Shown: positions 1 through 20,968, numbered from the stretch's first letter. The stretch: DNA of 61,816 bases from a virus (IMGVR_UViG_2740892042_000003); one strand, 5' to 3'. Numbers and translations are program-made. Notes: generated by a model not told the origin, from the letters alone.

Positions 1-1143
1 CTATGCTGTTTTAATATCTACGATAACCCAGTCTTTACCACGATCATCATTGTATCGGTCGGTCATTTTTCTGGATTTATGACCTAACAACTTTTGCGTA
101 TCCAGACCCTGTTCCCGATATAACCGTTCTGACAGAGATCGCTGCTCATGAAATGTGGGCGCAGTTCCTTGCTCCCATTTTATGCCACATTTTTCCCGGG
201 CCTTTTTAAAAGCCGTTGTCAGAGTATTTGCAGAAACCTGGTCTCCTCTGTTTGCTTGAGAGGTAGTGTGACGGTAATGGACCAGATATTTACTAACAAC
301 AGCATCCCTGCACTGAGATATAACTTCACGAAGGGTAATATTCAGAGCATCGCATTTCAGGTTAAGCGGAATAGCAAGTTTTGAACCGGTTTTTTCCTGA
401 GTAATGTGCAACATGTCGTCCCATATATCAGAGAATTTCAAATTGCAGATATCGCCTAAACGTTGTCCAGTAACAAGAGCAAGTAGCATCCCGCATTTTA
501 AATAGGGCTGCCGTCTGCTTACGCTGTCAAATATTGCCTGCCATTCGGGCAGTGATAATCTTTGGCGGTTTACTCGATTTCGCGGTTGTTTTGTTGCCTG
601 CGCTGGGTTAAATCCTGGCGGAACATGTCCGGCGTGTTGTGCTTCTTTGAAGACGTCGATCAACACCATTCTCACGACTTGCGCCATCCTGTTATGACCT
701 TCAGCCTTTACAGCATCAATTATTTCGGCAATATCAAGTGCGGTAATATCCTTGAGGTGTTGCATTCCACAATGCTCACGGAAAAGACGAATGGGTTTGC
801 CTTTTTGCCGATAGGAGTTGGGTCTTAGTTCATTATGTTGCAGCCTGTCCTCCTGGATAGAAATATATTTATCAAGCCATTCTGTCACCGTAATGTCTGA
901 GCGCCTGCCTTTCATTCTTTCCAGACGCTCATTGACGCTTAATATTTGTCGGGTACGTTGTTCAGCAATAATGGTATTTGCTTCAGTAGCAACTTGTTTT
1001 GCTTCATTCTCATCAGTTCCTAAGCTATGAAAACGACCGGATAGTGGATGTTTGTATTGCCAATATACCTTTCCGGTTCGCTTATCTAATTTGCAATATA
1101 AATTGGGTATAGAGATTTTGTGAGATCGGGGTCTAGCAGCCAT
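1..1143 (-). CDS. int: lambda-family tyrosine integrase (DLP12 IntD-like)
   Basis: 380-aa ORF; C-terminus HEQRSLSERLY...LLGHKS...RYNDDRG matches lambda Int catalytic region; first gene of prophage left arm, overlapped by xis. Confidence 0.9.
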   Translation of the reverse strand: MAARPRSHKISIPNLYCKLDKRTGKVYWQYKHPLSGRFHSLGTDENEAKQVATEANTIIAEQRTRQILSVNERLERMKGRRSDITVTEWLDKYISIQEDRLQHNELRPNSYRQKGKPIRLFREHCGMQHLKDITALDIAEIIDAVKAEGHNRMAQVVRMVLIDVFKEAQHAGHVPPGFNPAQATKQPRNRVNRQRLSLPEWQAIFDSVSRRQPYLKCGMLLALVTGQRLGDICNLKFSDIWDDMLHITQEKTGSKLAIPLNLKCDALNITLREVISQCRDAVVSKYLVHYRHTTSQANRGDQVSANTLTTAFKKAREKCGIKWEQGTAPTFHEQRSLSERLYREQGLDTQKLLGHKSRKMTDRYNDDRGKDWVIVDIKTA

Positions 1144-1369
1144 CAGCGATTATCCGTTGGAGTTTTGGGTTTGCGTTTATTGGGAGTTGCGGTTCTGCAA
1201 GCGTTCCTACAAAACGGGAATTTCGGTCAATCATCCAGTAGCGACCAACTTTTATAGCGGGTGGGGCCATCATTTTCCCTTGCGCGTATTTTTTCAGAAC
1301 TCGCTCACTTGGTGCTAAGTCCCCAAATTCTTCTTTAGCCCAGTCCTGTAAAGTGATTAGTCGAGACAT
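1133..1369 (-). CDS. xis: excisionase
   Basis: 78-aa ORF overlapping int start by 11 nt; N-terminus LITLQDW resembles lambda Xis; int-xis synteny. Confidence 0.75.
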   Translation of the reverse strand: MSRLITLQDWAKEEFGDLAPSERVLKKYAQGKMMAPPAIKVGRYWMIDRNSRFVGTLAEPQLPINANPKLQRIIADGC

Positions 1370-1508
1370 TTGTCCTCCTCTTAGCTGCTGAGGGAGTTTG
1401 TGACCGATATATCTGACATGATATTAAGCTCATGGCAGGTACATCTCTTGACTGGTCATAGAGATAAATTTAATGCTGAGAAATGCAGTATTGAATTTAT
1501 CAATTTTT

Positions 1509-1748
1509 CTATTTCCTGCGTATGGCACGTAACTTCTTAATGTGTTCTGCCGTTTCGATCTCTTCTGCTATCCGATCTGCATCAGCTTTATTCACAGGTT
1601 CAAAGTCATGATTAAAGCGGAACATGCTGGCGATACATGTTCTGCCTTTTCGGATGTAGTGAACTTTGTTGTGGGTAGAACGCAGGATTCTGCAGGGAGT
1701 GCCGTGGTGGTCGACGTACCAGGTGTTAGGAAAAATGATTCTGAACAT
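1509..1748 (-). CDS. hypothetical early-left protein
   Basis: 79-aa ORF in the int-xis to exo interval, same strand as neighbours. Confidence 0.4.
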   Translation of the reverse strand: MFRIIFPNTWYVDHHGTPCRILRSTHNKVHYIRKGRTCIASMFRFNHDFEPVNKADADRIAEEIETAEHIKKLRAIRRK

Positions 1749-1795
1749 TTTTACACCTCAGTTGGACGATGTTGAAATTTACTGCTTTGAGGCCA

Positions 1796-2014
1796 TCACA
1801 GTCCCCATTGTTTGTTCTTAAGTTCGATCTCCTCCTGGCAACTTGCACAAGTCCGACAACCCTGAACAGCCAGGCGTCTTCGCTCATCTATCGGATCGCC
1901 ACATTCACAACAATGAGTTGCGGATACAGTCTGGTAGTTCAGACGACGCATTTTTATTGCTGTATTGCGCTGTAATTCTTCGATTTCTGATGCTGAATCA
2001 ATGATGTCTGCCAT
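1796..2014 (-). CDS. TraR/DksA-family C4 zinc-finger protein
   Basis: 72 aa with CxxC...CxxC (CCECGDPI...CRTCASC) arrangement typical of phage TraR-like proteins. Confidence 0.7.
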   Translation of the reverse strand: MADIIDSASEIEELQRNTAIKMRRLNYQTVSATHCCECGDPIDERRRLAVQGCRTCASCQEEIELKNKQWGL

Positions 2015-2112
2015 CTTTCATTAATCCCTGAATTGTTGGTTAATACGCTTGAGGGTGAATGCGAACAATAAAAAAGGAGCCTGTAGCTCCCTGATGATTT
2101 TGCTTTTCATGT

Positions 2113-2394
2113 TCACCGTTCCTTAAAGACGCCGTTTAACATGCCGATCGCCAGGCTTAAATGAGTCGGTGTGAATCCCATCAGCGTTACCGTTTCGCGG
2201 TGCTTCTTCAGTACGCTACGGCAAATGTCATCGACGTTTTTATCCGGAAACTGCTGTCTGGCTTTTTTGATTTCAGAATTAGCCTGACGGGCAATACTGC
2301 GAAGGGCGTTTTCTTGCTGAGGTGTCATTGAACAAGTCCCATGTCGGCAAGCATAAGCACACAGAATATGAAGCCCGCTGCCAGAAAAATGCAT
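2113..2394 (-). CDS. hypothetical protein (lambda orf61-like position)
   Basis: ORF in the lambda orf61 position; likely true start at internal MTPQQ. Confidence 0.4.
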   Translation of the reverse strand: MHFSGSGLHILCAYACRHGTCSMTPQQENALRSIARQANSEIKKARQQFPDKNVDDICRSVLKKHRETVTLMGFTPTHLSLAIGMLNGVFKER

Positions 2395-2404
2395 TCAGTG
2401 GTTG

Positions 2405-2596
2405 TCATACCTGGTCTCTCTCATCTGCTTCTGCTTTCGCCACCATCATTTCCAGCTTTTGTGAAAGGGATGTGGCTAACGTATGAAACTCTTCGTCTGT
2501 TTCTGCTGGTATTGGCACAAACCTGACTCCAATTTGAGCAAGGCTATGTGCCATCTCAATGCTCGTTCTTAACTCAACAGGAGATGCTTTGTGCAT
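2405..2596 (-). CDS. lambda orf63-like protein
   Basis: 63-aa ORF, sequence recalled as lambda orf63 ([23 protein letters not shown]...). Confidence 0.5.
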   Translation of the reverse strand: MHKASPVELRTSIEMAHSLAQIGVRFVPIPAETDEEFHTLATSLSQKLEMMVAKAEADERDQV

Positions 2597-2757
2597 ACAG
2601 CCCCTCGTTTATTATTTATCTCCTCAGCCAGCCGCTGGGCTTTCAGTGGATTTTGGATAACAGAAAGGCCGGGAAATACCCAGCCTCGCTTTGTAACGGA
2701 GTAGACGAAAGTGATCGCACCTCCCCGGATATTATCGTGAGGATGCTTCATCGCCAT
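2569..2757 (-). CDS. lambda orf60a-like protein
   Basis: 62-aa [14 protein letters not shown]... immediately upstream of exo as in lambda. Confidence 0.5.
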
Positions 2758-3428
2758 TGCTCCCCAAATACAAAACCAATTTCAGCCAGTGCCTCGTCCA
2801 TTTTTTCGATGAACTCCGGCACCATCTCGTCAAAACTCGCCATGTAATTTTCATCCCGCTCAACCACGACATAATGCAGGCCTTCACGCTTCATTCGTGG
2901 GTCATAGTTTGCAAAGTACCAGGCATCTTTTCGCGTCACCCACATGCTGTACTGCACCTGGGCCATGTAAGCCGACTTTATGGCCTCGAAACCACCGAGC
3001 CGGAATTTCATGAAATCCCGGGAGGTAAACGGGCATTTCAGTTCAAGGCCGTTGCCGTCACTGCATAAACCATCGGGAGAGCAGGCGGTGCGCATACTTT
3101 CGTCGCGATAGATGATCGGGGATTCAGTAACATTCACGCCGGAAGTGAACTCAAAGAGGGCTCTGGCGTCGTTCTCGTACTGTTTTCCCCAGGCCAGCGC
3201 CTTAGCGTTAACTTCCGGAGCCACACCGGTGCAAACCTCGGCAAGCAGGGTGTGGAAGTAGGACATTTTCATGTCAGGCCATTTCTTTCCGGAGCGGGGT
3301 TTTGCTATCACATTGTGAACTTCTGAAGCGGTGATGACGCCGAGCCGTAATTTGTGCCACGCATCATCCCCCTGTTCGACAGCTCTCACGTCGATCCCGG
3401 TACGCTGCAGGATAATGTCCGGTGTCAT
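2748..3428 (-). CDS. exo: lambda exonuclease (Red alpha)
   Basis: 226 aa, near-identical to lambda Exo ([40 protein letters not shown]...). Confidence 0.95.
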
Positions 3429-4210
3429 GCAGCCACCTTCTGTTCAGAGGCTTTCTGTTTCAGGAATCCAAGAGCTTTCATTGCTTCGGCCTGTGTCAGT
3501 TCTGACGATGCGCGAATGTCGCGGCGAAATATCTGGGAACAGAGCGGCAATAAGTCGTCATCCCATGTTTTGTCCAGGGCAATCAGCATAGTGTTAATCT
3601 CCTGCATGGTTTCATCGTTAACCGGAGTGATGTCGCGTTCCGGCTGACGTTCTGCAGTGTATGCGGTATTTTCGACAATGCGCTCGGCTTCATCCTTGTC
3701 ATAGATACCAGCAAATCCGAAGGCCAGACGGGCACACTGAATCATGGCTTTATGCCGTAACATCCGTTTGGGATGCGACTGCCACGGCCCCGTGATTTCT
3801 CTGCCTTCGCGGGTTTTGAATGGTTCGCGGCGGCATTCATCCATCCACTCGGTAACGCAGATCGGATGATTGCGGTCCTTGCGGTAAATCCGGCATGTGC
3901 AGGATTCATTGTCCTGCTCAAAGTCCATACCATCAAACTGCTGGTTTTCATTGATGATGCGGGACCAGCCATCAACGCCCACCACCGGAACGATGCCGTT
4001 CTGCTTATCAGGGAAGGCGTAAATTTCTTTCGTCCACGGATTAAGGCCGTACTGGTTGGCGACGATCAACAATGCGATGAACTGCGCATCGCTGGCATCA
4101 CCTTTAAATGCCGTCTGGCGAAGAGTGGTGATCAGTTCCTGTGGGTCGACAGAATCCATGCCGACACGTTCAGCCAGCTTCCCTGCCAGCGTTGCGAGTG
4201 CTGTACTCAT
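3425..4210 (-). CDS. bet: Red beta single-strand annealing protein
   Basis: 261 aa, near-identical to lambda Bet; 4-nt overlap with exo. Confidence 0.95.
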
Positions 4211-4215
4211 CCGTT

Positions 4216-4512
4216 TTATACCTCTGAATCAATATCAACCTGGTGGCGGGCAATAGTTTCAACCATGTACCGGATGTGTTCTGCCATGCGTTCCTGAAAC
4301 TCAACATCGTCATCAAACGCACGGGTAATGGCTTTTTTGCTGGCCCCGTGGCGTTGCAAATGATCGATGCATAGCGATTCAAACAGGTGCTGGGGCAGGC
4401 CTTTTTCCATGTCGTCTGCCAGTTCTGCCTCTTTCTCTTCACGGGCGATCTGCTGGTAGTGACGCGCCCAGCTCTGAGCCTCAAGACGATCCTGAATGTA
4501 ATAAGCGTTCAT
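4216..4512 (-). CDS. gam: Gam (RecBCD inhibitor), short form
   Basis: 98 aa matching the C-terminal 98 residues of lambda Gam ([21 protein letters not shown]...). Confidence 0.9.
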
Positions 4513-5278: not shown

Positions 5279-6211
5279 CTATTCGATTTTTTTAACCATG
5301 TAGTTACGTCGTGATGTTCCTAATCTTTCATTGTGAATCTCAGAAACGCTTACTACGAGCGATATTCGTTCACCAACTTTATATTTACTTTGAATTTCTC
5401 CTAACATATCAATCGGATAAGAAGCCTTTATTTTTCCAAGCTCGCTTGCAATCTCCAATTTCCCGTACATGGATAAAATAGCAAGTTCGCCTGATATATG
5501 CTCATCCGGTAGCTGAATGACCTTCGTTAAAGCTAAGCGAGCATTCAGTTTTTTTATATCTTCTGAAGAAATTGACACTTGTCTGGTACCATCACTTAAA
5601 GGTCCAATCCAAGTAAGATCAAAGTTAAGACTATATTTTTCGCACTCATTTATGATGTTTTTTAGGTTAGCTGTTGATTGCGAACCAATTTCGGCAATTT
5701 TAGCCGTGAATGTTTCTTCATCAATGGATGAGAGTAGTGCAAAAATCTCCTTAACAGCATGACTGGATACTGTTTCGATGAGCTCGCAAGAACCAGTAGA
5801 AAAAGTAACACCTAACTTCGTCGAACCTGGACGCAAGTCTGCCAATCTCATGTCTAATGATTTTTTAACATCAATCGGCACACGACTAGAATCTTTCCCA
5901 GATCCAAGTCGGTAAACTGCTTTCTGTACAAGGGATGCGAGATTACCTGAAATTACAGATAGAATATCTAACGGAATAGACCCGAAATCGACCAAAACAC
6001 CTTTTAATCTCAACTCCATGAAATCACGTAAAGGATGTTGGTTATCGATTGCACGTTGTCTCTCTCGGAGATCGCTCAGATGGGAGTCAAGTGATCTAAA
6101 TATAATGTCATCAGCAAATGATCTCCCCTTATTTTGAGCAAGCAGATCCACATCGCGTTGAATGAACGCAATTCGCTCCTTGAGGGAGTTGAATGTTTTT
6201 TCTTCGCTCAT
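5279..6211 (-). CDS. hypothetical 310-aa protein, distal gene of repressor-linked two-gene operon
   Basis: long ORF, no recognised domain; start ATG overlaps stop of upstream ORF (ATGA); followed by terminator. Confidence 0.7.
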   Translation of the reverse strand: MSEEKTFNSLKERIAFIQRDVDLLAQNKGRSFADDIIFRSLDSHLSDLRERQRAIDNQHPLRDFMELRLKGVLVDFGSIPLDILSVISGNLASLVQKAVYRLGSGKDSSRVPIDVKKSLDMRLADLRPGSTKLGVTFSTGSCELIETVSSHAVKEIFALLSSIDEETFTAKIAEIGSQSTANLKNIINECEKYSLNFDLTWIGPLSDGTRQVSISSEDIKKLNARLALTKVIQLPDEHISGELAILSMYGKLEIASELGKIKASYPIDMLGEIQSKYKVGERISLVVSVSEIHNERLGTSRRNYMVKKIE

Positions 6212-6681
6212 AACATTACCCTCACGAGGCCTTTAGGATTCTCCTTCCGATCAAAACCAAACCACCCTCTCCAGTAACTTCGCCTTTCACTATAATCGAT
6301 TTCTGGATGATTTTCAGGCAGCAAAAGAACGTCAATGCTGTAGTTTTCTTTAATAAAATCTCTATTTAACAATGAGCTAACCAATGGCATCAGCGTGTTT
6401 GGCAAAGAGTTTAGGGCCAAATAATCGACGACCACGAGTATATCTATGTCATCAGGTTCAGGTTTCTCTGTAGTGAATGAACCATCGATCCACACTTCAG
6501 AGAAACATAGACACTGCTGATTAACAAGTTTAAATTGCTCAATAAGCTGTATAAAATTACAGTATAGCATACTTCTTCTAACGGATTTTGGGAAGGTGTC
6601 GACACAAAGAGACTTGATGCCATCACTATCCATATCATGAAATCCTGCTGTAAGAAGAGGTGGGAAGCTAGGCTTTTCCAT
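6208..6681 (-). CDS. minimal nucleotidyltransferase-like protein (Pol-beta superfamily motif)
   Basis: 157 aa with WIDGSF...PEPDDIDILVVVD...YSIDVLLL, fitting the GS-x(n)-DhD plus third acidic strand pattern of MNT/SMODS-type NTases; AAGGA RBS upstream; 81 bp downstream of repressor. Confidence 0.7.
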   Translation of the reverse strand: MEKPSFPPLLTAGFHDMDSDGIKSLCVDTFPKSVRRSMLYCNFIQLIEQFKLVNQQCLCFSEVWIDGSFTTEKPEPDDIDILVVVDYLALNSLPNTLMPLVSSLLNRDFIKENYSIDVLLLPENHPEIDYSERRSYWRGWFGFDRKENPKGLVRVML

Positions 6682-6762: not shown

Positions 6763-7491
6763 TTAACCATGCTTCCTGTACGTCTGCGGCATGCTCCCAA
6801 TAACCTTACCGAAGATGAACACCCGGTTCATCTCGTCTTTCTCGATCGGGTCCCACGGTGAGTAGCTCTTGTTATCAGAGATAACCAGTAGCTTATCTTT
6901 CATCATTTGCAGGCGCTTTACATGGGCTGTGTCGTCGTACAGAAACGCATAGATACCATCACCGTCGAAAGATTTAACCGTGATATCAACGAACAGCAGA
7001 TCACCTGGTTCGATCGTTCCTGACATGCTGTCACCACGCACGTTAATGATGCGGATATTTTCCGCCTTCCTGCCATCGAACATGTGACGAGCATCGTCAA
7101 ACGAGTACTCAACCGAGCGTAGAACTTCTACAAACTCACGGTTGATTACACCCGGCCCGGCACTGACTTCTATATCAAGAACGTCAATTTTGAAGTATTT
7201 GGAATGGCTGACAGCAGGCTTCCCTGATTGTTGACCGTCATTTCTCATCGGGCCTATGCCTGATGAGAGCCATTCTGTTCGAACACCCAATGCATTAGCT
7301 ATTTCAACAATTTTTGTTGAGCCGCGCGCGTTGCCGCTTGTCAGTCTCCAGATTGTGGGTTGAGCTACGCCAGACGCCTTTGCAAGAGCGCCTTGAGACA
7401 TTCCAGATTGTTCCATCGCTAGGTTTAAGCGATCAGCAAGAGTTTCTTTTTTCATAAGTTTTAATTTATACGCTTGCGTATTGATGGTCAA
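6763..7491 (-). CDS. CI-type repressor (HTH plus S24 LexA-like autopeptidase)
   Basis: N-terminal HTH (MSQGALAKASGVAQPTIWRL), C-terminal GDSMSGTIEPGD with downstream KRL; divergent from cro-like gene; start may be internal ATG at 7455. Confidence 0.85.
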   Translation of the reverse strand: MTINTQAYKLKLMKKETLADRLNLAMEQSGMSQGALAKASGVAQPTIWRLTSGNARGSTKIVEIANALGVRTEWLSSGIGPMRNDGQQSGKPAVSHSKYFKIDVLDIEVSAGPGVINREFVEVLRSVEYSFDDARHMFDGRKAENIRIINVRGDSMSGTIEPGDLLFVDITVKSFDGDGIYAFLYDDTAHVKRLQMMKDKLLVISDNKSYSPWDPIEKDEMNRVFIFGKVIGSMPQTYRKHG

Positions 7492-10378: not shown

Positions 10379-10443
10379 AAACAGGTGAGTTGAGTTCAAA
10401 CTGTAGTACAATTCTCTCCAGTTTGAACAGGAAAGAATATGTT

Positions 10444-10776
10444 ATGAACCCTTATATTTATCTTGGTGGTGCAATACTTGCAGAGGTCATTGGTACAACC
10501 TTAATGAAGTTTTCAGAAGGTTTTACACGGTTATGGCCATCTGTTGGTACAATTATTTGTTATTGTGCATCATTCTGGTTATTAGCTCAGACGCTGGCTT
10601 ATATTCCTACAGGGATTGCTTATGCTATCTGGTCAGGAGTCGGTATTGTCCTGATTAGCTTACTATCATGGGGGTTTTTCGGCCAACGGCTGGACCTGCC
10701 AGCCGTTATAGGCATGATGTTGATTTGTGCCGGTGTGTTGGTTATTAATTTATTGTCACGAAGCACACCACATTAA
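10444..10776 (+). CDS. emrE: small multidrug resistance efflux transporter EmrE
   Basis: 110 aa MNPYIYLGGAILAEVIGTTLMKFSEGF... matches E. coli EmrE; AT-rich flanks. Confidence 0.95.
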   Translation: MNPYIYLGGAILAEVIGTTLMKFSEGFTRLWPSVGTIICYCASFWLLAQTLAYIPTGIAYAIWSGVGIVLISLLSWGFFGQRLDLPAVIGMMLICAGVLVINLLSRSTPH

Positions 10777-11020
10777 AAATAATTTCTTTTAAAAGACTGA
10801 AATATGGCGGTTCATATCTTTACATGGGCCGCTTTTGTTAATGTTTTTAGTTTTTGTGTATTCTTTTGTGCCTTCAAGATTATTGCGTAAGCAAATTGCA
10901 ATACGATTATTGTTGTATATTCAAAAGAATGTGATCGTAATTGTCTTTTTAAATAAAAATTAAACAAAAATTATATCTCACCACTAAGGTTTATAAAAGC
11001 ATACGTTAGCAGGTGTCACC

Positions 11021-12547
11021 ATGAAAAAAGCCATAGCATATATGCGATTTTCATCACCAGGTCAGATGTCTGGCGACTCATTAAACCGACAGAGAAGACT
11101 TATTGCTGAATGGTTAAAGGTAAATAGTGATTATTATCTTGATACCATAACATATGAAGATTTAGGATTAAGTGCATTCAAAGGAAAGCATGCACAATCA
11201 GGAGCTTTTTCGGAATTTTTAGATGCTATAGAGCATGGTTATATATTGCCAGGAACTACATTGCTAGTTGAAAGTCTGGACAGACTTTCAAGAGAAAAAG
11301 TCGGTGAAGCGATTGAGCGTCTGAAATTGATTTTGAATCACGGTATTGATGTTATAACTCTTTGCGATAATACAGTCTATAATATTGACTCTTTGAATGA
11401 TCCATATTCATTAATAAAAGCCATACTTATAGCACAAAGGGCAAATGAAGAAAGCGAGATAAAGTCAAGTCGGGTTAAATTATCATGGAAGAAAAAACGG
11501 CAGGATGCACTGGAGTCAGGCACGATTATGACGGCGTCTTGTCCGAGATGGCTCTCATTGGATGACAAAAGAACAGCTTTTATTCCAGACCCCGACAGGG
11601 TGAAAACGATTGAGCTAATTTTTAAACTCAGGATGGAAAGGCGATCATTGAATGCAATAGCCAAGTATTTAAATGATCATGCTGTAAAAAATTTCTCAGG
11701 AAAAGAAAGTGCATGGGGGCCTTCTGTAATTGAAAAATTATTAGCGAATAAAGCTCTGATAGGTATATGCGTACCTTCATATCGTGCAAGAGGTAAAGGA
11801 ATAAGTGAAATCGCTGGCTATTATCCCAGAGTCATATCAGATGATTTGTTTTACGCTGTGCAGGAAATTCGGTTGGCACCTTTTGGTATTAGCAATAGTA
11901 GCAAAAATCCTATGTTGATAAATCTACTTCGAACAGTTATGAAGTGCGAGGCTTGTGGTAATACCATGATTGTTCATGCGGTATCTGGAAGTTTGCATGG
12001 CTATTATGTTTGTCCGATGAGAAGACTGCATCGATGTGGCAGGCCATCAATAAAGAGAGATTTGGTTGATTATAATATCATTAATGAGTTGCTTTTTAAT
12101 TGTAGTAAAATCCAACCAGTTGAAAACAAGAAAGATGCTAATGAAACTTTAGAGTTGAAAATTATTGAGCTCCATATGAAAATTAATAATTTAATTGCTG
12201 CATTATCTGTTGCGCCTGAAGTTACCGCTATAGCAGAAAAAATCAGAGTATTAGATAAGGAATTACGAAGGGCTTCTGTATCATTAAAAACTTTGAAGAG
12301 TAAAGCGGTGAGCTCACTTGGTGATTTTCATGCTATTGACTTAACCAGTAAAAATGGGCGAGAGCTATGTCGTACACTTGCCTATAAAACATTCGAAAAA
12401 ATCATAATCAATACAGATAATAAAACCTGTGATATCTATTTTATGAATGGCATTGTTTTTAAACACTATCCTTTAATGAAAACAATATCCGCCCAGCAGG
12501 CGATAAGTACTCTCAAATATATGGTTGATGGTGAGGTTTATTTTTGA
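11021..12547 (+). CDS. ybcK: large serine recombinase YbcK
   Basis: 508 aa; N-terminal resolvase-type catalytic domain (AYMRFSSPGQ), large C-terminal domain with Cys cluster; matches DLP12 YbcK. Confidence 0.9.
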   Translation: MKKAIAYMRFSSPGQMSGDSLNRQRRLIAEWLKVNSDYYLDTITYEDLGLSAFKGKHAQSGAFSEFLDAIEHGYILPGTTLLVESLDRLSREKVGEAIERLKLILNHGIDVITLCDNTVYNIDSLNDPYSLIKAILIAQRANEESEIKSSRVKLSWKKKRQDALESGTIMTASCPRWLSLDDKRTAFIPDPDRVKTIELIFKLRMERRSLNAIAKYLNDHAVKNFSGKESAWGPSVIEKLLANKALIGICVPSYRARGKGISEIAGYYPRVISDDLFYAVQEIRLAPFGISNSSKNPMLINLLRTVMKCEACGNTMIVHAVSGSLHGYYVCPMRRLHRCGRPSIKRDLVDYNIINELLFNCSKIQPVENKKDANETLELKIIELHMKINNLIAALSVAPEVTAIAEKIRVLDKELRRASVSLKTLKSKAVSSLGDFHAIDLTSKNGRELCRTLAYKTFEKIIINTDNKTCDIYFMNGIVFKHYPLMKTISAQQAISTLKYMVDGEVYF

Positions 12548-12658
12548 GTAATAATCACTTTTTCAACCGTGCTATAGTAAGAAAGTTAGGTAAGTACAAT
12601 AAAATTATCTATCCTGAACGAAGCGTCCTGAGCTATGGTTTTACTATAGGGACTGCCA

Positions 12659-13156: not shown

Positions 13157-13939
13157 ATGGACAATATTAATAAACACGGGCTCTCAAGAAGAATACCTGA
13201 GACAATAAAACGTCAGATAAGGCAAAGGTGCGGCTTTGGCTGTGTAATTTGTGGATTTGGATTTTATGATTATGAGCATTTTAAACCTGACTTCGTTGAT
13301 GCCAAAGTACATGATCCGAATGGAATGACACTTCTTTGCTCCCAATGCAATCAAAAAAGAGCTCGTGGTAGACTTTCAGCACAGACAGTGGAAATAGCTG
13401 ACAGAAATCCCAAGTGCTTACAGGCTGGTTTTGCAAATGAAATGTTTGATTTTCATAATGAGCCTATAACAGTAAAATTTGCAGGAGTGACGTTTCATAA
13501 CTGTCAAAATTTGATTGTAGTCAACGAACAACCCATTCTTTCTGTGAAACCTTCACCCATACCACATGGACCGATGCTTTTATCAGGAATTTTCTGTAAT
13601 TCTATTGGTAAGGAGACTTTACTGATAGATGAAAATGAATGGAAAGCTAAATCAGACAATTGGGATGTGGAGTGTACCGGCCCGCGTATAACAATACGAC
13701 GTGGGCCAGGAGAGTTTGCCCTCGTTCTAAAAATGGAACCTCCAACAGGATTGATTGTTGAGCGTCTTGATATGTTGTATGAAGGGGTCAGGATGAAAGG
13801 AGATAAAGATCTGCTGGAAGTTTCGATTAATGGAGGTCCCTTGCACAGATGGCAATCATGCTCAATGTCAAATTGCCATACAGGGCTTGCGATTCAGGGC
13901 GGTATTAGAGCTGCTAATGATCCTTTGTATTGCGCCTAA
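13157..13939 (+). CDS. HNH endonuclease-domain protein with uncharacterised C-terminal domain
   Basis: N-terminus CGFGCVICGF...YEHFKPDF...HDPNGMTLLCSQCN fits the HNH CxxC...H...N...CxxC pattern; 260 aa. Confidence 0.65.
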   Translation: MDNINKHGLSRRIPETIKRQIRQRCGFGCVICGFGFYDYEHFKPDFVDAKVHDPNGMTLLCSQCNQKRARGRLSAQTVEIADRNPKCLQAGFANEMFDFHNEPITVKFAGVTFHNCQNLIVVNEQPILSVKPSPIPHGPMLLSGIFCNSIGKETLLIDENEWKAKSDNWDVECTGPRITIRRGPGEFALVLKMEPPTGLIVERLDMLYEGVRMKGDKDLLEVSINGGPLHRWQSCSMSNCHTGLAIQGGIRAANDPLYCA

Positions 13940-14757: not shown

Positions 14758-15040
14758 TTTGAGAAAAGCAGCGCGTGGTCGGGAATGCCAGGTAAGAATC
14801 CCTGGCGTATGTAATGGCAATCCTGAAACGTCAGTACTGGCACATATCCGGCTGGCTGGATTGTGCGGTACCGGTATCAAACCGCCAGACCTGATTGCCA
14901 CCATTGCATGTTCTGCCTGCCACGACGAAATCGACCGTCGCACGCATTTTGTTGACGCTGGATATGCAAAAGAATGTGCGCTGGAAGGTATGGCGAGAAC
15001 ACAGGTTATCTGGCTGAAAGAGGGGGTAATTAAGGCGTGA
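14750..15040 (+). CDS. ybcO: YbcO (DUF1364)
   Basis: 96 aa from [23 protein letters not shown]..., AGGAGG RBS; Cys-rich. Confidence 0.8.
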
Positions 15041-15399
15041 ATACTTACAGCATCACATTACCCTGGCCTCCGAGCAATAATCGCTATTACCGCCATAATC
15101 GCGGGCGCACGCACATCAGCGCAGAGGGGCAGGCATACCGCGATAACGTCGCCCGAATCATCAAAGGCTCCATGCTGGATATCGGCCTGGCTATGCCAGT
15201 GAAAATCCGTATTGAGTGCCACATGCCGGATCGCCGTCGCCGTGACCTGGATAATCTGCAAAAAGCCGCTTTTGACGCACTCACCAAAGCAGGTTTCTGG
15301 CTGGATGATGCTCAGGTCGTTGATTACCGCATTGTGAAGATGCCTGTTACCAAAGGTGGGAGGCTGGAACTGACCATCACCGAAATGGGGAATGAATGA
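15037..15399 (+). CDS. rusA: Holliday junction resolvase RusA
   Basis: 120 aa matching RusA ([18 protein letters not shown]...). Confidence 0.9.
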
Positions 15400-15536
15400 T
15401 GTTTGAGTTTTATATGGCAGAACTTCTTCGCCACCGCTGGGGGCGTCTGCGCTTATATCGTTTCCCCGGTTCTGTTTTGACCGATTACCGAATACTGAAG
15501 AATTACGCCAAAACCCTGACAGGAGCAGGAGTATGA
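15396..15536 (+). CDS. ylcG: YlcG small protein
   Basis: 46-aa [18 protein letters not shown]... overlapping rusA stop. Confidence 0.6.
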
Positions 15537-15621
15537 AGTCAGAGATAACAATCAACTAATACTGTTTTGTTGATTTTTGCTTGTAATTGGCGTTCTGGTC
15601 TGATTTTTGTGGAGTAAGTTG

Positions 15622-15999
15622 ATGCGTGATATTCAGATGGTTCTTGAGCGTTGGGGAGCGTGGGCGGCTAATAATCATGAAGATGTGACCTGGTCGTCCA
15701 TTGCCGCCGGTTTTAAGGGATTAATTCCTTCAAAAGTAAAATCTCGCCCACAATGTTGTGACGATGACGCGATGATCATTTGCGGGTGCATGGCCCGTCT
15801 GAAAAAGAACAACAGCGATTTGCATGATTTATTGGTGGACTATTATGTCGGCGGCATGACTTTTATGGCGCTTGCACGTAAGCATGGGCGATCTGATTGT
15901 TGGGTTGGCAGGATGCTCCAGAAAGCTGAGGGCGTAGTGGAGGGTATGCTGATGGTGTTGGATCTCCGATTGGAGATGGATGCTGATTGTTCGAAATAA
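15622..15999 (+). CDS. quuD: late antiterminator Q
   Basis: matches DLP12 QuuD from [14 protein letters not shown]...; Cys cluster [12 protein letters not shown]. Confidence 0.8.
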
Positions 16000-16098
16000 T
16001 TAAAGGAAAAGTTGCTGTCTGATTGTCATTAGTCTAACATTTTAAATGTTGGAATCGCAACGTAGTTATTATCATATAACAGCTTGTTTCCTGATTTA

Positions 16099-16126
16099 GC
16101 CAGCCTCCCCAAAGGCTGGTTTTTTC
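16099..16126 (+). terminator. tR'-like rho-independent terminator downstream of Q
   Basis: stem gccagcc/ggctgg with loop tccccaaa followed by ttttttc about 100 nt after Q stop. Confidence 0.5.
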
Positions 16127-16153
16127 TAATAAGTATCATTTCGGGTAGGGATT

Positions 16154-16678
16154 TTATTGTTTAACCCATAATAATTCATTGACATTGAATCCCAACTTTT
16201 GAGCGGTTCGCACATAGTCTGCTTTTACTTTATCTGGAATAGTTGAGGTCCTTGCCAGAATCCATAGGTATTCTCTGTTCGGACCACTGACAAGAGCATA
16301 CTTATACTCATCATCCAGTTTGATTACATTATAGCCACCATAGAAGGGGCCAAAAAACGAAACCTTCAACGCTGCAGTTTTAGTATCTCCAGTAAAGTAT
16401 GCTTTACCTTCGCTCTCGCTCCATTTATTTTTCGTTGGATCGTATCCACGGTTAAGTACACGAATCCCTCCGTCGTTCCGTTTTCCATAAGTAGCGCTGA
16501 CCTGTTCCAGACCACGTTCGAACCGGTTCTCGAGGCGAGCTATTTCATACCATTTTCCGAGGTAGCGGTTGGCGTCAAAATTTGTAATCGGCTGCACACC
16601 TTTAGGTGGTGTCGGGGCCTTACATGCTATAAGAGTGAAAGAGAGCGCAATGCCAGTCAACACAGGCCATAACTTCAT
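16154..16678 (-). CDS. Blc-like outer-membrane lipocalin lipoprotein
   Basis: 174 aa with lipobox LIAC and lipocalin signature NFDANRYLGKWYEIARLENRFERG; homologous to, not identical with, E. coli Blc. Confidence 0.85.
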   Translation of the reverse strand: MKLWPVLTGIALSFTLIACKAPTPPKGVQPITNFDANRYLGKWYEIARLENRFERGLEQVSATYGKRNDGGIRVLNRGYDPTKNKWSESEGKAYFTGDTKTAALKVSFFGPFYGGYNVIKLDDEYKYALVSGPNREYLWILARTSTIPDKVKADYVRTAQKLGFNVNELLWVKQ

Positions 16679-16870
16679 AATAAATCCTGTACTTTTGATA
16701 GTTGAGAGTAAGTATGAAAGATAGATGATTACGACCGATCACTTAAAGAACTTTCATACTATATTAGGAATAGTCCATAACAGAAAAATTGTCAGTGATG
16801 ACGCCAGAAAGGCAATTTATTCCGTGCACTACACAGTTTATGTGTTAATGAATTAGTCAAGGGGGAGGAT

Positions 16871-17830
16871 ATGATAAAAAAACCTGTGATTGGAATCAGC
16901 GGTTGTTTGGCCGGTTCTGCTGTTCGTTTTGATGGTGGTCACAAAAGAGCTGACTTTTTAATGGACAAATTAGTGGAATGGGTAACATTCAGACCAGTAT
17001 GTCCGGAAATGGCTATAGGGCTGCCAGTTCCGCGTCCTGCTCTACGTCTTGTGCGCTCGACGCAAGGAAATATACGGATGTGTTTCAGCCACGACCAGAA
17101 TGAGGATGTGACAGAGAGAATGACAGAGTTTAGTCGTTCTTATATGGACAAATTAAAGGATGTATCGGGGTTTGTGGTTTGTGCTAAATCTCCCAGCTGT
17201 GGCATGGAGCGCGTGCGTGTCTATGATGAAAATGGTAATCGAGGTCGTAAAGATGGAGTGGGACTATTTACGAGCACTTTGATGGAAAAGTTTTCCTGGC
17301 TACCGGTTGAAGAGGATGGGCGATTACATGATCCAGTGCTTCGTGAGAATTTTGTTGAAAGAGTTTTTGCTTTGCATGAGCTCAATCACCTTTACAAGGA
17401 GAAATTATCAAGAAGAGAGTTATTGGCTTTTCATAGTCGTTATAAGCTTCAGTTGTTGGCGCATAGTCAGACAGGCTATAAAGATATGGGACCATTTGTG
17501 GCTGCAATACACGAGTGGGCGGATCTTGAATCATACTTTGAGGTGTATCGTGATAAGCTGATGGCGATTCTCAGAAAACCTGCATCACGTAAAAATCACA
17601 CGAATGTGCTGATGCATATACAGGGGTATTTTAGTAACTACTTAAGTACACGCCAGCGTAAAGAGTTGAGCGAGGTTATACTTAACTATCGTTCTGGCAC
17701 ATTACCTCTTCTTGCGCCGTTGACTCTGCTGAAGCATTATCTGGGTGAGTATCCTAATGATTACTTGCTTACACAGAATTACTTCGATCCCTATCCGGAC
17801 GAACTGGCTCTAAGACTGATGGTAAATTAA
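16871..17830 (+). CDS. DUF523-DUF1722 fusion protein (TudS/YbgA-like)
   Basis: N-terminal GISGCLAGSAVRFDGGH...CPE...CGMER Cys pattern (DUF523) followed by YbgA-like C-terminal region. Confidence 0.65.
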   Translation: MIKKPVIGISGCLAGSAVRFDGGHKRADFLMDKLVEWVTFRPVCPEMAIGLPVPRPALRLVRSTQGNIRMCFSHDQNEDVTERMTEFSRSYMDKLKDVSGFVVCAKSPSCGMERVRVYDENGNRGRKDGVGLFTSTLMEKFSWLPVEEDGRLHDPVLRENFVERVFALHELNHLYKEKLSRRELLAFHSRYKLQLLAHSQTGYKDMGPFVAAIHEWADLESYFEVYRDKLMAILRKPASRKNHTNVLMHIQGYFSNYLSTRQRKELSEVILNYRSGTLPLLAPLTLLKHYLGEYPNDYLLTQNYFDPYPDELALRLMVN

Positions 17831-18172
17831 TTGTATGCGATATCATCCAAAAGGATGAGTTCCTGCATACAGGATATTTACAATCGTAAAAACTACACTA
17901 TGATACCCAGAGTGTCAGTTTGTATAAAAACTCTGTTTACGCTGAAGAAACCATTGAGATGCAACTTAAATTTGGTAAACATGCCAGTCAAAATATATGA
18001 TATTATGATTCCACGCAGCTATATATAATATAACAGATTGGTTTAATAATTTGTCTTTGTGAGTTAAATACATAATTTTATACTTGTGATGCAATGAGAT
18101 TTTCCTTATTGTTGAACTGGCGAATATTGATTTTCCACCTATACTTACCTGGTGTAACCCCAATGATATCAG

Positions 18173-18913
18173 GTGGATAATATGCCATACATATGTTCTA
18201 TCATTTTGGTGTTGAACTCGTTTGATGTCCGAATTGGTAAAGAAGATATTTTGTTTAAAAAAGGAAGTGCTGTTCTCATTGATTACAATTTAAAAGATTT
18301 TTTTTCATCAAATATAGATCATGTAATGATCGTAGATGTTGAAGAGAAAACAGTTAATGATTTCTTTAAAAGCAACACACTCTCACCTTTTTCTGTAAGA
18401 AGGTTTTATCCGGCATACTTGATGGTGGAATGTGAAGATTTTTCATTGTTAAAGAACTTGATTGCATGCTTGAATTGTGATGGCAGAACTGTGGATTTTG
18501 TTAGAAATCAAATATCACTTGCATGTCTTGCTATCTTATCTTCAGAGAAAATAGTGCAAAGTTTTTTATTTGGATGTCTTAATAGTTTAGGAAGTAAAGT
18601 TAAGGCTATTATTCACACGGATATATCTGCAACATGGAGACTTTGTGATATATCTTCAAGACTGTATCTGAGTGAAAGTCTGTTAAAAAGAAAATTAAAG
18701 CACGAAGGCTTATCATTTAGTAAATTAATTCTTGAAGAGCGAATGGTGATGGCGGAAAGGTTATTAAGCTACAATTTATATTCTGTTGGAAAAGTTGCTG
18801 AGATATGCGGTTATGAAAACACGTCATATTTTGTAAGTGTTTTCAGAAGATATTTTGGTGTTCCTCCCCATCAATATTCATCAAGATTTTTTTTAGAAAA
18901 AGACATGATGTAA
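18173..18913 (+). CDS. AraC-family transcriptional regulator
   Basis: C-terminal AraC HTH (KVAEICGYENTSYFVSVFRRYFGVPPHQY); architecture like AppY/YbcM. Confidence 0.75.
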   Translation: MDNMPYICSIILVLNSFDVRIGKEDILFKKGSAVLIDYNLKDFFSSNIDHVMIVDVEEKTVNDFFKSNTLSPFSVRRFYPAYLMVECEDFSLLKNLIACLNCDGRTVDFVRNQISLACLAILSSEKIVQSFLFGCLNSLGSKVKAIIHTDISATWRLCDISSRLYLSESLLKRKLKHEGLSFSKLILEERMVMAERLLSYNLYSVGKVAEICGYENTSYFVSVFRRYFGVPPHQYSSRFFLEKDMM

Positions 18914-18974
18914 CGTGATGCGTTTTAATGATTTTGTAATTTTCGTATTTGATAATTGTATGATGCTTTCAGCT

Positions 18975-19006
18975 ACGCCAGAATAATCGCTGGCGTTTTT
19001 CTTTTT
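18975..19006 (+). terminator. rho-independent terminator
   Basis: stem acgccag/ctggcgt, loop aataatcg, then ttttctttt. Confidence 0.55.
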
Positions 19007-19101
19007 GAATAGATGTTCAAGCCTTACGCTAATGTAACTTCTATACCTTTCCTCTTCGTTCCGAACCGTGTACACCATCCGTTATTTGCGGAGGTGAGGC
19101 T

Positions 19102-19317
19102 ATGAAATCCATGGATAAGTTAACAACGGGCATTGCCTACGGCACCTCCGCAGGCAGTGCTGGCTACTGGTTTTTACAGCTGCTCGATAAAGTCACGCCC
19201 TCACAGTGGGCAGCAATAGGTGTGCTGGGTAGCCTGGTATTTGGCCTGCTGACGTACCTGACAAACCTTTATTTCAAGATTAAAGAAGATAAGCGCAAGG
19301 CTGCGAGAGGTGAATAA
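19102..19317 (+). CDS. essD: holin
   Basis: 71 aa with one hydrophobic helix and charged C-terminus, immediately upstream of lysozyme. Confidence 0.85.
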
Positions 19318-19814
19318 TGCCTCCATCATTACGAAAAGCCGTTGCTGCTGCTATTGGTGGCGGAGCAATTGCTATAGCATCAGTGTTAATCACTGGCCCA
19401 AGTGGTAACGATGGTCTGGAAGGTGTCAGCTACATACCATACAAAGATATTGTTGGTGTATGGACTGTATGTCACGGGCATACAGGAAAAGACATCATGC
19501 TCGGTAAAACGTATACCAAAGCAGAATGCAAAGCCCTCCTGAATAAAGACCTTGCCACGGTCGCCAGACAAATTAACCCGTACATAAAAGTTGATATACC
19601 GGAAACAATGCGCGGCGCTCTTTACTCGTTCGTTTACAACGTGGGCGCTGGCAATTTCAGAACATCGACGCTTCTTCGCAAAATAAACCAGGGCGATATC
19701 AAAGGCGCATGTGATCAGCTACGTCGCTGGACATATGCTGGCGGTAAGCAATGGAAAGGTCTCATGACTCGTCGTGAGATTGAGCGTGAAATCTGTTTGT
19801 GGGGTCAGCAATGA
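19317..19814 (+). CDS. rrrD: phage lysozyme (T4 lysozyme family)
   Basis: 165 aa matching DLP12 RrrD. Confidence 0.9.
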
Positions 19815-20269
19815 ACAGAGTAACCGCGATTATCTCCGCTCTGGTTATCTGCATCATCGTCTGCCTGTCATTGGCTGTTAATCATTACCGTGATAACGCA
19901 ATCGCCTACAAAGAGCAGCGCGATAACAAGGCCAGTGAACTGGAGAAGGCGAACGCCACCATCGCTGACATGCGGAAGCGTCAACGTGATGTAGCAGAAC
20001 TCGACGCAAGATACACAAAGGAGCTTGCTGATGCTAACGCGACTATCGAAAGTCTCCGTGCTGATGTTTCTGCTGGGCGTAAGCGCCTGCAAGTCGCCGC
20101 CACCTGTGCAAAGTCAACGACCGGAGCCAGCGGCATGGGCGATGGAGAAAGCCCAGGACTTACAGCAGATGCTGAACTCAATTATTACCGTCTCCGAAGT
20201 GGAATCGACAAGATAACCGCGCAGGTTAACTACCTGCAGGAATACATCAGGACGCAATGCCTGAAATAA
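19811..20269 (+). CDS. rzpD: i-spanin Rz
   Basis: N-terminal TM helix and coiled coil; ATG at 19811. Confidence 0.85.
20025..20216 (+). CDS. rzoD: o-spanin Rz1 lipoprotein, nested in Rz in +1 frame
   Basis: 63 aa with lipobox LLGVSAC and Pro-rich region, embedded entirely within Rz. Confidence 0.75.
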
Positions 20270-20470
20270 TTTTTTTGCAAATCACAAAGTCCATTTAATG
20301 AGCCTCGCGATGCGGGGCTTTTTGCAATAAATGCGTACCGCAACGCATGTTTTTTACACCGAACCTGCCCCTTTGGAATGGGCCTTTGAGGATACCAGTT
20401 AGTGCTGGCGAGCCTCGGTGGGCTGGTTTCCTGTGCGGCAAAGGTTCATTTCAAAGAGTAGGTACACGCT

Positions 20471-20968
20471 ATGAAATCATTAACCCTCTTCAATCAACCA
20501 ATTCGTATCGGTGAAGATGGCATGATCTGCCTCACTGATATGTGGAAAGCCAGTGGTAAAAGTGAATCTGAATCGCCTTACCACTACCTGCGAAACAAGC
20601 AGACCAAAGAGTTCTTAGCCGAGCTGGAGAAAAACCACGAATCTGTGGTTTTTACTGAGCGCGGTGTACACGGTGGAACATATGGCGGGAAGTTTGTTGC
20701 TTACGATTATGCGGCTTGGTTAAACCCCGGGTTCAAGTACGCGGCCTATAAAGTCCTCGATGACTACTTCACCGGAGAACTTCAGCATCGCAACAGCTTA
20801 AGTGCGCAGCTCAACATGAAATGTCATGAGTTTGACCAGAAGAAAGACATGGCGAGCTTCTGCGGACAAGGGCTGGCAGCATGGCGCTATACGAAGCCAG
20901 TGTTGGTCGCTGAGATTAACTCCCTGGCTAACCAGCTGCAGATTACGATCCCCGGGCTTCCGGGATGA
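20471..20968 (+). CDS. KilA-N domain protein
   Basis: ICLTDMWKASGK...GTYGGKFVAYDYAAWLNPGF pattern typical of KilA-N domains. Confidence 0.65.
   Translation: MKSLTLFNQPIRIGEDGMICLTDMWKASGKSESESPYHYLRNKQTKEFLAELEKNHESVVFTERGVHGGTYGGKFVAYDYAAWLNPGFKYAAYKVLDDYFTGELQHRNSLSAQLNMKCHEFDQKKDMASFCGQGLAAWRYTKPVLVAEINSLANQLQITIPGLPG

Follow-up and report, generated by a model that had tools for sequence, protein, structure and literature searches.

A swappable blc-rudS-araC cargo segment between Q and the lysis genes of a lambdoid prophage, widespread in Escherichia coli

Here we describe a segment of phage cargo in a viral DNA sequence of 61,816 nucleotides (nt), IMGVR_UViG_2740892042_000003; this whole stretch is referred to as the window, and positions are counted from its first letter. 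The segment lies between the late antiterminator gene Q and the lysis genes and holds three genes: blc, for a lipocalin lipoprotein, on the reverse strand, and, on the forward strand, rudS, for a predicted tRNA 4-thiouridine (s4U) desulfidase, and a gene for an AraC-family regulator, here called araC. We read positions 15982-19090 as a swappable cargo segment in the slot between the late promoter PR' and the holin gene S of a lambdoid prophage beside icd, and the locus as one allele of a widespread module of fixed order, namely Q, PR' with the terminator tR', blc (-), rudS (+), araC (+), a second terminator and the holin gene. The probability of this reading, together with the use and history that we infer for the module, is put at roughly 0.8. 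An earlier note, made from the sequence alone, had proposed a reverse-strand Blc-like lipocalin, a forward DUF523-DUF1722 fusion and a forward AraC regulator at this locus; the listing of open reading frames (ORFs) confirms all three within 16154-18913, and their Pfam domains agree.

The borders of the segment are set by sibling phages that carry nmpC, ompC or ompD in the same slot (ev243, mEp332 and Turner). DNA homology to these siblings ends at 15981, 18 nt short of the Q stop codon, and resumes at 19091, 11 nt before the ATG of the holin gene. Because the homology breaks at these two points, the exchangeable unit includes, besides the three genes, the region of the late promoter and the two terminators. 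Upstream stands a Q with a Pfam Phage_antitermQ domain (E 2.5e-51), 88% identical to QuuD of the K-12 prophage DLP12 and 81% identical to Q of the Stx2 phage 933W; downstream are the holin, lysozyme and Rz genes, which places the cargo in the Q-to-lysis slot as had been claimed. The comparison drawn earlier with DLP12 and the Stx phages holds as well: DLP12 (quuD, nmpC, essD) has nmpC in the slot, in the same layout by annotation, and 933W (Q, pR', qut, tR', tRNAs, stx2AB, S) has tRNAs and stx2AB downstream of a related Q. Both have a terminator soon after the late promoter, as in the window, whereas the cargo itself is unrelated; like the segment described here, that of DLP12-type phages begins with a reverse-strand gene for an envelope protein. 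The segment thus shows two marks of a moron, a slot that holds unrelated cargo in related phages and a base composition unlike that of the phage, the window as a whole having a GC content of 48%, blc 44%, rudS 43%, araC 31% and the spacers 32-34%. In E. coli strain 582, a prophage adjoining icd is identical in sequence to the window. It is made up of int/xis, exo/bet/gam, the repressor region, O/P, a nin region like that of DLP12, Q, the cargo and lysis genes, and head and tail genes of the lambda type.

The module recurs in phages and in E. coli genomes. Q, blc, rudS, araC and the holin gene, with blc alone reversed, are found together in 74 of 80 IMG/VR contigs; each of the others lacks at least one of these genes. 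In 981 complete E. coli genomes the region 15600-19400 is present in one piece over 80% or more of its length, a coverage of the query that 12 phage records also reach, with the isolated phage IdasGreatGrand at 98%. rudS itself occurs in 1136 of 5426 complete E. coli genomes (about 20%), with a coverage of at least 80% in 1064 of them (94%). At every E. coli rudS locus inspected the gene is in a prophage and downstream of Q, and it lies between Q and the lysis genes when the block is complete. The backbones comprise the icd-site lambda-like prophage of strain 582, iss-carrying lambda-like prophages at two other positions, and a Qin-type prophage of strain MB20 (ydfU, rrrQ, cspI) in which the block is interrupted by insertion sequence (IS) elements of the IS3 family. 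The block is therefore accessory phage cargo in E. coli and not core chromosome, a possibility that the earlier note had named as fatal to its proposal. The prevalence contradicts statements in the literature that E. coli lacks RudS: the primary paper states that E. coli has none (PMC11417400), and reviews say likewise.

BL21 carries a Qin-type remnant of the module (NZ_CP010816.1, 1552354-1562500) with the same Q, an intact blc and the first 147 nt of rudS, which is cut by an IS3 element. BL21(DE3) was the expression host of the published RudS study (PMC11417400); the usual expression host thus carries a prophage blc and a dead rudS stub. Two IS3-family insertions could be located, one in rudS at window position 17018 and one at about 17987-18058, and they flank the promoter-like site at 17877-17904. 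At one of the E. coli loci an IS3-family element sits in the AT-rich spacer between rudS and araC and a second one splits the 3' end of Q. In several E. coli genomes the RefSeq annotation shows transposases of IS1, IS2, IS3 or ISEc52 within the stretch matched by the cassette. Two short contigs of a 'Candidatus Nanosynbacter' metagenome-assembled genome also hold Q, Blc, RudS, AraC and holin at 93-100%; we rejected this organism as a carrier, the contigs being evidently a binning contamination from an E. coli prophage.

RudS is the central enzyme of the cargo. Pfam divides it into an N-terminal 2-thiour_desulf domain (PF04463, formerly DUF523; E 3.1e-40, residues 7-149, profile positions 1-141 of 141) and a C-terminal DUF1722 domain (PF08349; E 2.2e-40, residues 192-309, profile positions 1-117 of 117), the fusion that had been proposed for this ORF. 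TudS-DUF1722 fusions have been named RudS and are [4Fe-4S] tRNA 4-thiouridine desulfidases (Jamontas et al., Nucleic Acids Research 2024, PMC11417400). All six RudS proteins tested in that study lowered s4U in E. coli tRNA under overexpression, whereas stand-alone TudS and YbgA had no effect, and RudS overexpression lessened the growth delay induced by ultraviolet A (UVA). One of the six, 'RudS_vir', is gp66 of phage 1H12 (H3V29_gp66) and reduced s4U of E. coli tRNA in vivo. Aligned to it without gaps, the window protein shows 93% identity (22 substitutions, both of 319 amino acids (aa)), with the same two-domain architecture and the same Cys12/Cys44/Cys110 numbering, which is also tabulated for RudS_vir and RudS_ST (Table 1 of PMC11417400). 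On the strength of this 93%-identical orthologue, the window rudS would encode a RudS that converts s4U to uridine at tRNA position 8(9). The earlier suggestion of a link between the enzyme and tRNA thiolation agrees with this published function.

The residues expected of an active enzyme are kept. Alignment of the window protein with nine other RudS sequences shows the [4Fe-4S] ligands Cys12, Cys44 and Cys110 to be invariant, and likewise the catalytic residues Glu46, Arg55, Ser107 and Ser109 as well as Arg19, Ser239 and Arg240; the link of DUF523 to Fe-S thiouracil desulfidases with conserved cysteines that the earlier note had drawn, and which loss of these ligands was to have overturned, stands. 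The seven further residues are matched, by a constant offset from the cysteine positions and not by direct alignment to the KT sequence, to Glu51, Arg60, Ser111, Ser113, Arg24, Ser243 and Arg244 of RudS_KT, whose mutation abolished or reduced activity (PMC11417400). The N-terminus also aligns with TudS (6Z92), at a weak similarity (E 2e-4), with Cys12 on Cys10 and Cys44-Pro-Glu46 on Cys43-Pro-Glu45. TudS thus shares the [4Fe-4S] ligands and the CPE motif, but it has no DUF1722 and acts on free bases or nucleotides, not on tRNA. RefSeq names the window protein 'YbgA family protein', and its score against the NCBIfam YbgA equivalog (190.8) is under the cutoff of 237. E. coli YbgA (b0707), a stand-alone DUF1722 encoded upstream of phr, is 49% identical to RudS residues 164-315; it differs in having no catalytic domain and leaves tRNA s4U unaltered (PMC11417400). 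RudS_ST (ORF319, STM1389, in Salmonella SPI-2) and the RudS proteins of Enterobacter, Citrobacter and Klebsiella have the same length of 319 aa and 70-76% identity.

By its sequence, blc is a gene for an outer-membrane lipocalin lipoprotein. E. coli Blc is located in the outer membrane and binds lipids or lysophospholipids. The window protein has a Pfam Lipocalin_2 domain (PF08212, E 7e-43), scores 313.5 bits against a cutoff of 267 for the NCBIfam subfamily 'outer membrane lipoprotein Blc' (PRK10477/NF007786) and matches the solved Blc chains in the PDB at an E of about 1e-67. Its N-terminus reads as a lipoprotein signal, MKLWPVLTGIALSFTL-I-A-C19-K, with a lipobox L16-I17-A18-C19 followed by Lys at +2 and free of an inner-membrane retention signal. 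Full-length similarity (59% identity) and the lipobox are shared with K-12 Blc (b4149), which is sigma-S-dependent; unlike that chromosomal blc, which lies next to ampC, the window gene is a paralogue with greater similarity (about 80%) to the blc found alongside rudS in Enterobacter. It is also the moron blc of infant-gut lambdas, a frequent lambda moron present in more than 50% of them in a collection that includes 1H12 (Mathieu et al. 2020, PMC6969025); the window Blc is 97% identical to 1H12 gp65.

The third protein has the double helix-turn-helix of the AraC family (HTH_18, E 1.1e-14, residues 161-237; HTH_AraC, E 2.3e-11). Its best NCBIfam model is YdeO, matched over the full length at 127.2 bits against a cutoff of 348, with GadX at 85.7 against 500; identification as YdeO or GadX was rejected on these scores, which are those of a relative. 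It is 32% identical to YdeO, 32% to AppY and, over the full length, 54% to WP_000246059.1 of EDL933, with the C-terminal DNA-binding half visibly better conserved. By the sub-cutoff YdeO score and these identities, the protein is a not yet characterised representative of the AraC-like regulators known from prophages. WP_000246059.1 is the sole AraC-family gene product of the thrW prophage remnant CP-933H (OI-8), and we take it to be PatE (z0321) from a review (PMC10877973) and the EDL933 island map, where it is the only AraC gene. PatE is a prophage-encoded activator of gadE/hdeAB, and PatE and PsrB are reported to activate acid-resistance promoters (PMC10877973). The window protein could possibly do the same at gadE/hdeAB, given its 54% identity to the presumed PatE. 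It resembles PatE, PsrA/PsrB, YdeO and AppY, regulators of GAD or hdeAB that are prophage-borne or horizontally acquired, in size and in full-length alignment, and PatE, Psr and AppY also in low GC content and prophage location; it is not the orthologue of any characterised member and lies in the Q-S slot instead of at a prophage end. Copies with 52-53% identity occur at different genome positions in other lambdoid phages, and the 1H12 counterpart, gp67 (a 243-aa 'hypothetical protein'), is 82% identical. In E. coli two araC allele classes are seen, one in 544 genomes at 99% or more and one in 433 genomes at 80-90%.

Chromosomal relatives point to the history of the segment. With one genome taken per species, chromosomal RudS proteins 66-76% identical to that of the window were found in Citrobacter, Enterobacter, Leclercia, Lelliottia, Klebsiella, Pectobacterium and others. 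As in the window, a divergent blc stands upstream of rudS in many genera: a Blc homologue is encoded upstream on the opposite strand at 42 of 62 chromosomal RudS loci of other Enterobacterales, within 2 kb at 41 of them, and is 68-82% (mostly 76-82%) identical to the phage Blc. Enterobacter, Leclercia, Lelliottia and some Citrobacter thus carry the pair on their chromosomes. At the Citrobacter sedlakii locus examined, blc and rudS are directly adjacent with a gap of 187 bp, compared with 192 bp in the window; at that of Enterobacter hormaechei, a MerR/MlrA-type regulator gene and a transthyretin-like gene lie between them. A MerR-type regulator has been linked to light-induced rudS expression (PMC11417400). 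Chromosomal rudS adjoins such a MerR-family (MlrA-like, possibly light-responsive) regulator, whereas the phage copy is without it and has the unrelated araC instead, a gene present at none of the 62 chromosomal loci. Thus, blc and rudS were probably captured together from an enterobacterial chromosome with loss of the MerR-type regulator, and the 31%-GC araC would have been added separately. No donor of the pair could be named among the GTDB species representatives, because the similarity to chromosomal loci (65-76% nucleotide identity) does not extend beyond the coding regions, the DNA between the genes being unrelated.

Since their divergence from the 1H12 alleles (dS 0.20-0.34), the genes have evolved at ratios of nonsynonymous to synonymous substitution rates (dN/dS) of 0.07 for blc, 0.11 for rudS and 0.28 for araC, the faster-evolving of the three; purifying selection therefore acts on all three. 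The order of Q, lipocalin (-), gp66, gp67 and holin in phage 1H12 is that of the window. The window allele differs from 1H12 in its prophage backbone, which is integrated at icd and has a DLP12-like nin region.

The arrangement of terminators and promoters (Table 1) bears on how the cargo would be transcribed. The terminator scan found a hairpin at 16098-16121, 99 nt past the Q stop codon and 33 nt beyond the blc stop codon, which folds on the forward strand with -15.6 kcal/mol (z -4.05; none of 200 shuffles as good). On the reverse strand the fold is -13.3 kcal/mol (z -2.46) and the T-run is missing; the hairpin may also end blc transcripts. The second hairpin, at 18975-18996, folds with -11.3 kcal/mol (z -2.33; 7 of 200 shuffles reach this value), and this terminator is kept in 1H12 and in the Qin-type copy. 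Terminators had been proposed to bracket the locus: scan and fold recover both, and what probably does not stand is the ascription of the upstream one to the cargo. Most probably it is the tR' of the late operon itself, situated just after PR', because the corresponding place in 933W, whose Q is related, has annotated pR' and qut followed by a terminator. In the 933W record pR' (TTTACG-16-TATCAT) overlaps the end of Q and is followed by qut and, about 30 nt on, by the terminator. The window TATCAT at 16070-16075 is identical to the 933W -10 hexamer, and the ATAACAG block is common to DLP12 and ev243, with ATAAGAG in 933W. Aligned with 933W, DLP12 and ev243, the window shares short blocks in this region, but the candidate -35/-10 spacings disagree among the phages (15, 16 and 19 nt) and the spacing of the window hexamers is irregular, so that the exact PR' is uncertain. 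Of the parts of a Q-dependent late operon, Q and a strong terminator are present, and PR' and qut are placed tentatively, by partial alignment to 933W and DLP12.

Homology to the sibling phages resumes at the holin ribosome-binding site, so there is no shared promoter just upstream of S, and late transcription would therefore have to cross the cargo, giving sense transcripts for rudS and araC but antisense ones for blc. The late co-expression that the earlier note had foreseen for the forward genes is, from this layout, a sound expectation for rudS and araC only. Within the cargo, the best promoter-like site of the region is at 17877-17904 (TTTACA-16-TATGAT, 10 of 12 positions) and is a candidate araC promoter; the intergenic region between blc and rudS has only a weak sigma-70-like match at 16702-16729 (9 of 12).

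Table 1. Features of the cargo segment and its immediate neighbours in the window
Feature	Position	Strand	Basis or remark
Q late antiterminator, 125 aa	15622..15999	+	RefSeq start (ORF lister: TTG 15607); DLP12 QuuD / 933W Q type
Candidate PR' and qut leader	16045..16097	+	TTGGAA 16049-16054, TATCAT 16070-16075, ATAACAG block; partial alignments with 933W, DLP12, ev243
Intrinsic terminator, 9-bp GC-rich stem then TTTTTT, probable tR'	16098..16121	+	Terminator scan
blc paralogue, outer-membrane lipocalin lipoprotein (predicted), 174 aa	16154..16678	-	Pfam Lipocalin_2
Divergent blc/rudS intergenic region, 192 bp, 34% GC	16679..16870	.	Presumed to hold promoters of both genes
rudS, TudS (DUF523) + DUF1722 fusion, 319 aa	16871..17830	+	Pfam; 1H12 gp66 homology
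AT-rich rudS-araC spacer, 32% GC	17831..18181	.	Candidate araC promoter 17877-17904
AraC/XylS-family regulator, 243 aa, 31% GC, YdeO/AppY/PatE-like group	18182..18913	+	HTH_18, HTH_AraC; ORF from 18173 in ORF listing, RefSeq ATG 18182
Intrinsic terminator after araC, 7-bp stem then TTTTTCTTTTT	18975..18996 (feature to 19006)	+	Terminator scan
Lysis cassette: P21-type holin 19102-19317, lysozyme 19317-19814, Rz 19799-20269	19102..20269	+	Pfam; downstream limit of cargo; Rz1-like ORF 20025-20216 embedded in Rz

We propose that in the lysogen the cargo genes would be expressed from promoters of their own, as lysogenic-conversion functions. RudS would hold its [4Fe-4S] cluster by Cys12, Cys44 and Cys110 and, with Glu46, Ser107 and Ser109, convert s4U back to uridine, the DUF1722 domain supplying tRNA binding. 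Lysogens would then have less s4U in their tRNA, hence less near-UV cross-linking and growth delay, together with an envelope lipocalin and possibly a rewired acid-stress regulation, while the terminator at 18975 would shield the lysis genes from lysogenic transcription of the cargo. Upon induction, Q-modified RNA polymerase starting at PR' would read through tR' at 16098 and the whole segment into S/R/Rz, reading rudS and araC in the sense direction and blc as antisense. The moron-like layout, the purifying selection and the UVA protection by overexpressed RudS speak for a role in lysogenic conversion. A bolder version, which we offer as a tentative possibility and hold to be on the doubtful side, is that about one fifth of E. 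coli strains are epitranscriptomically converted: native prophage RudS would lower tRNA s4U, perhaps under the PatE-like regulator, and the late transcript would sustain phage translation. If so, prophage RudS would alter near-UV tolerance, stringent-response signalling or tRNA stability, and a PatE-like regulator would have replaced the ancestral MerR-type switch.

Several observations weigh against the reading of the segment as a maintained conversion module. Coverage of rudS is below 80% in 72 of the 1136 copies, BL21 keeps 147 nt of the gene and IS insertions occur; the block is therefore dispensable. For its protein level RudS_vir was the less active enzyme in the published assay, which used overexpression only, and the [4Fe-4S] cluster of RudS is oxygen-labile (PMC11417400). 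A sigma-70 scan gave 14 promoter-like sites, compared with 12.2 +/- 3.8 by chance in shuffled sequences; the sites are not enriched, and so no promoter claim is rested on the scan. As to the history, the closest chromosomal relatives among the GTDB species representatives are about 76% (RudS) and 81% (Blc) identical, and the DNA between blc and rudS, conserved in 1H12, is unrelated at the chromosomal loci. A delta-thiI mutation, which removes s4U, mildly reduced lambda replication (PMC3296357), which argues against a simple lytic benefit, and the relevance of near-UV in the gut is doubtful.

Other explanations of the cargo were weighed against the same data. It seems unlikely that RudS is mainly a lytic auxiliary, made late and stripping s4U so that ultraviolet light cannot cross-link s4U8-C13 and stall late translation. 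The sense orientation of rudS inside the sole path from PR' to the lysis and structural genes, the constant linkage of the block to the same Q allele and the lessened UVA growth delay under overexpression (PMC11417400) would suit such a role; but the upstream intergenic region of its own and the downstream terminator form the usual moron layout, the late period is short for erasing the s4U of a stable tRNA pool, lambda does slightly worse and not better on delta-thiI hosts (PMC3296357), and SOS induction comes from ultraviolet C or DNA damage, whereas s4U is targeted by UVA. With purifying selection on three genes (dN/dS 0.07-0.28 at dS 0.2-0.34), at least 80% gene coverage in 94% of rudS copies, an order fixed in 74 of 80 viral contigs and intact catalytic residues, it is improbable that the block is a neutral hitch-hiker, functionless and slowly decaying in a permissive slot, as the truncated copies, the IS-family transposases inside the cassette in several genomes and the tolerance of the slot for nmpC, ompD, stx and tRNAs might otherwise suggest.

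We also give little credence to a protection of the lysogen from other phages, whether by an s4U-depleted host resembling delta-thiI or by a cell surface altered by AraC or the lipocalin. The mild but significant reduction of lambda replication by delta-thiI (PMC3296357) and the envelope-related nature of the alternative slot cargo, the nmpC and ompD porins, are consistent with it; yet that reduction is small and was attributed to competition for sulfur flux and not to s4U, the resident phage would be handicapped too, and no PADLOC defence model matches Blc, RudS or AraC. An action on free thiolated bases or nucleotides (2- or 4-thiouracil, s4UMP) for salvage or detoxification, like that of stand-alone TudS, is very improbable. 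In its favour are the N-terminal domain, a genuine TudS/PF04463 domain that has the same ligands, and the recycling of s4UMP by TudS enzymes (PMC10611767); against this, a uracil auxotroph was rescued by TudS and by none of the six RudS fusions, that of 1H12 included, all six lowered tRNA s4U as stand-alone TudS did not (PMC11417400), and DUF1722 is conserved with its tRNA-binding residues Ser239 and Arg240. Finally, the chromosomal blc-rudS pairs of Enterobacter, Leclercia, Lelliottia and some Citrobacter would be compatible with a locus of the core host chromosome, an idea that can be practically dismissed: the locus is absent from about 80% of complete E. coli genomes, occupies differing chromosomal places, always between Q and phage lysis genes in the loci inspected, and is found in isolated phage genomes. 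Its distribution and contexts refute a core-chromosome locus in E. coli.

The segment, read as exchangeable cargo that serves the lysogen, is not a new lead in itself. Both the enzyme family and this phage lineage's version of it have been characterised before, and blc has been listed among the lambda morons, so that the segment is no new kind of system. The published work on RudS_vir used overexpression and had the phage context, the neighbouring genes and the prevalence in E. coli outside its scope (PMC11417400), and a literature search found no description of the three-gene block as a unit. The new points are of modest weight: how common the block is in E. coli, the probable capture of blc and rudS as a chromosomal pair, and the exchange of a MerR-type for an AraC-family regulator. 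The prevalence of about 20% matters when s4U levels or UVA responses are compared between strains, and the module offers a tractable case of a host tRNA-modification eraser within a phage late operon, with a testable regulator swap.

Scans of the region and its cargo with other databases gave little further. Rfam reported no known RNA family in 15000-20500 at E <= 1 beyond three sub-threshold chance matches, and PHROGs placed the cargo proteins in 'unknown function' families only. Elsewhere in the prophage, two overlapping reverse-strand genes (5279-6211 and 6208-6681) lie beside the repressor gene (6763-7491), where lambda has rexAB, and are matched by the two components of PDC-M63, a candidate defence system of PADLOC (component B, E 4e-42; component A, E 7e-43, DUF6932). 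A 260-aa forward ORF in the nin region (13157-13939, GC about 39-42%) belongs to phrog_6544 (function unknown), has no Pfam or PADLOC match and appears as an orphan cargo gene. mnmA, the gene of the host tRNA 2-thiouridine synthase, lies about 3 kb from the icd-side prophage (window 1-4400), a proximity that we take as a coincidence of position and not a functional link. ren is annotated as a pseudogene with an internal stop. The DLP12-like nin region of the strain 582 prophage contains emrE, ybcK, ybcN, ninE, ybcO, rusA and ylcG; its part at about 10440-12550 holds emrE (a small multidrug resistance (SMR) efflux pump) and the ybcK-type serine recombinase gene, as in DLP12.

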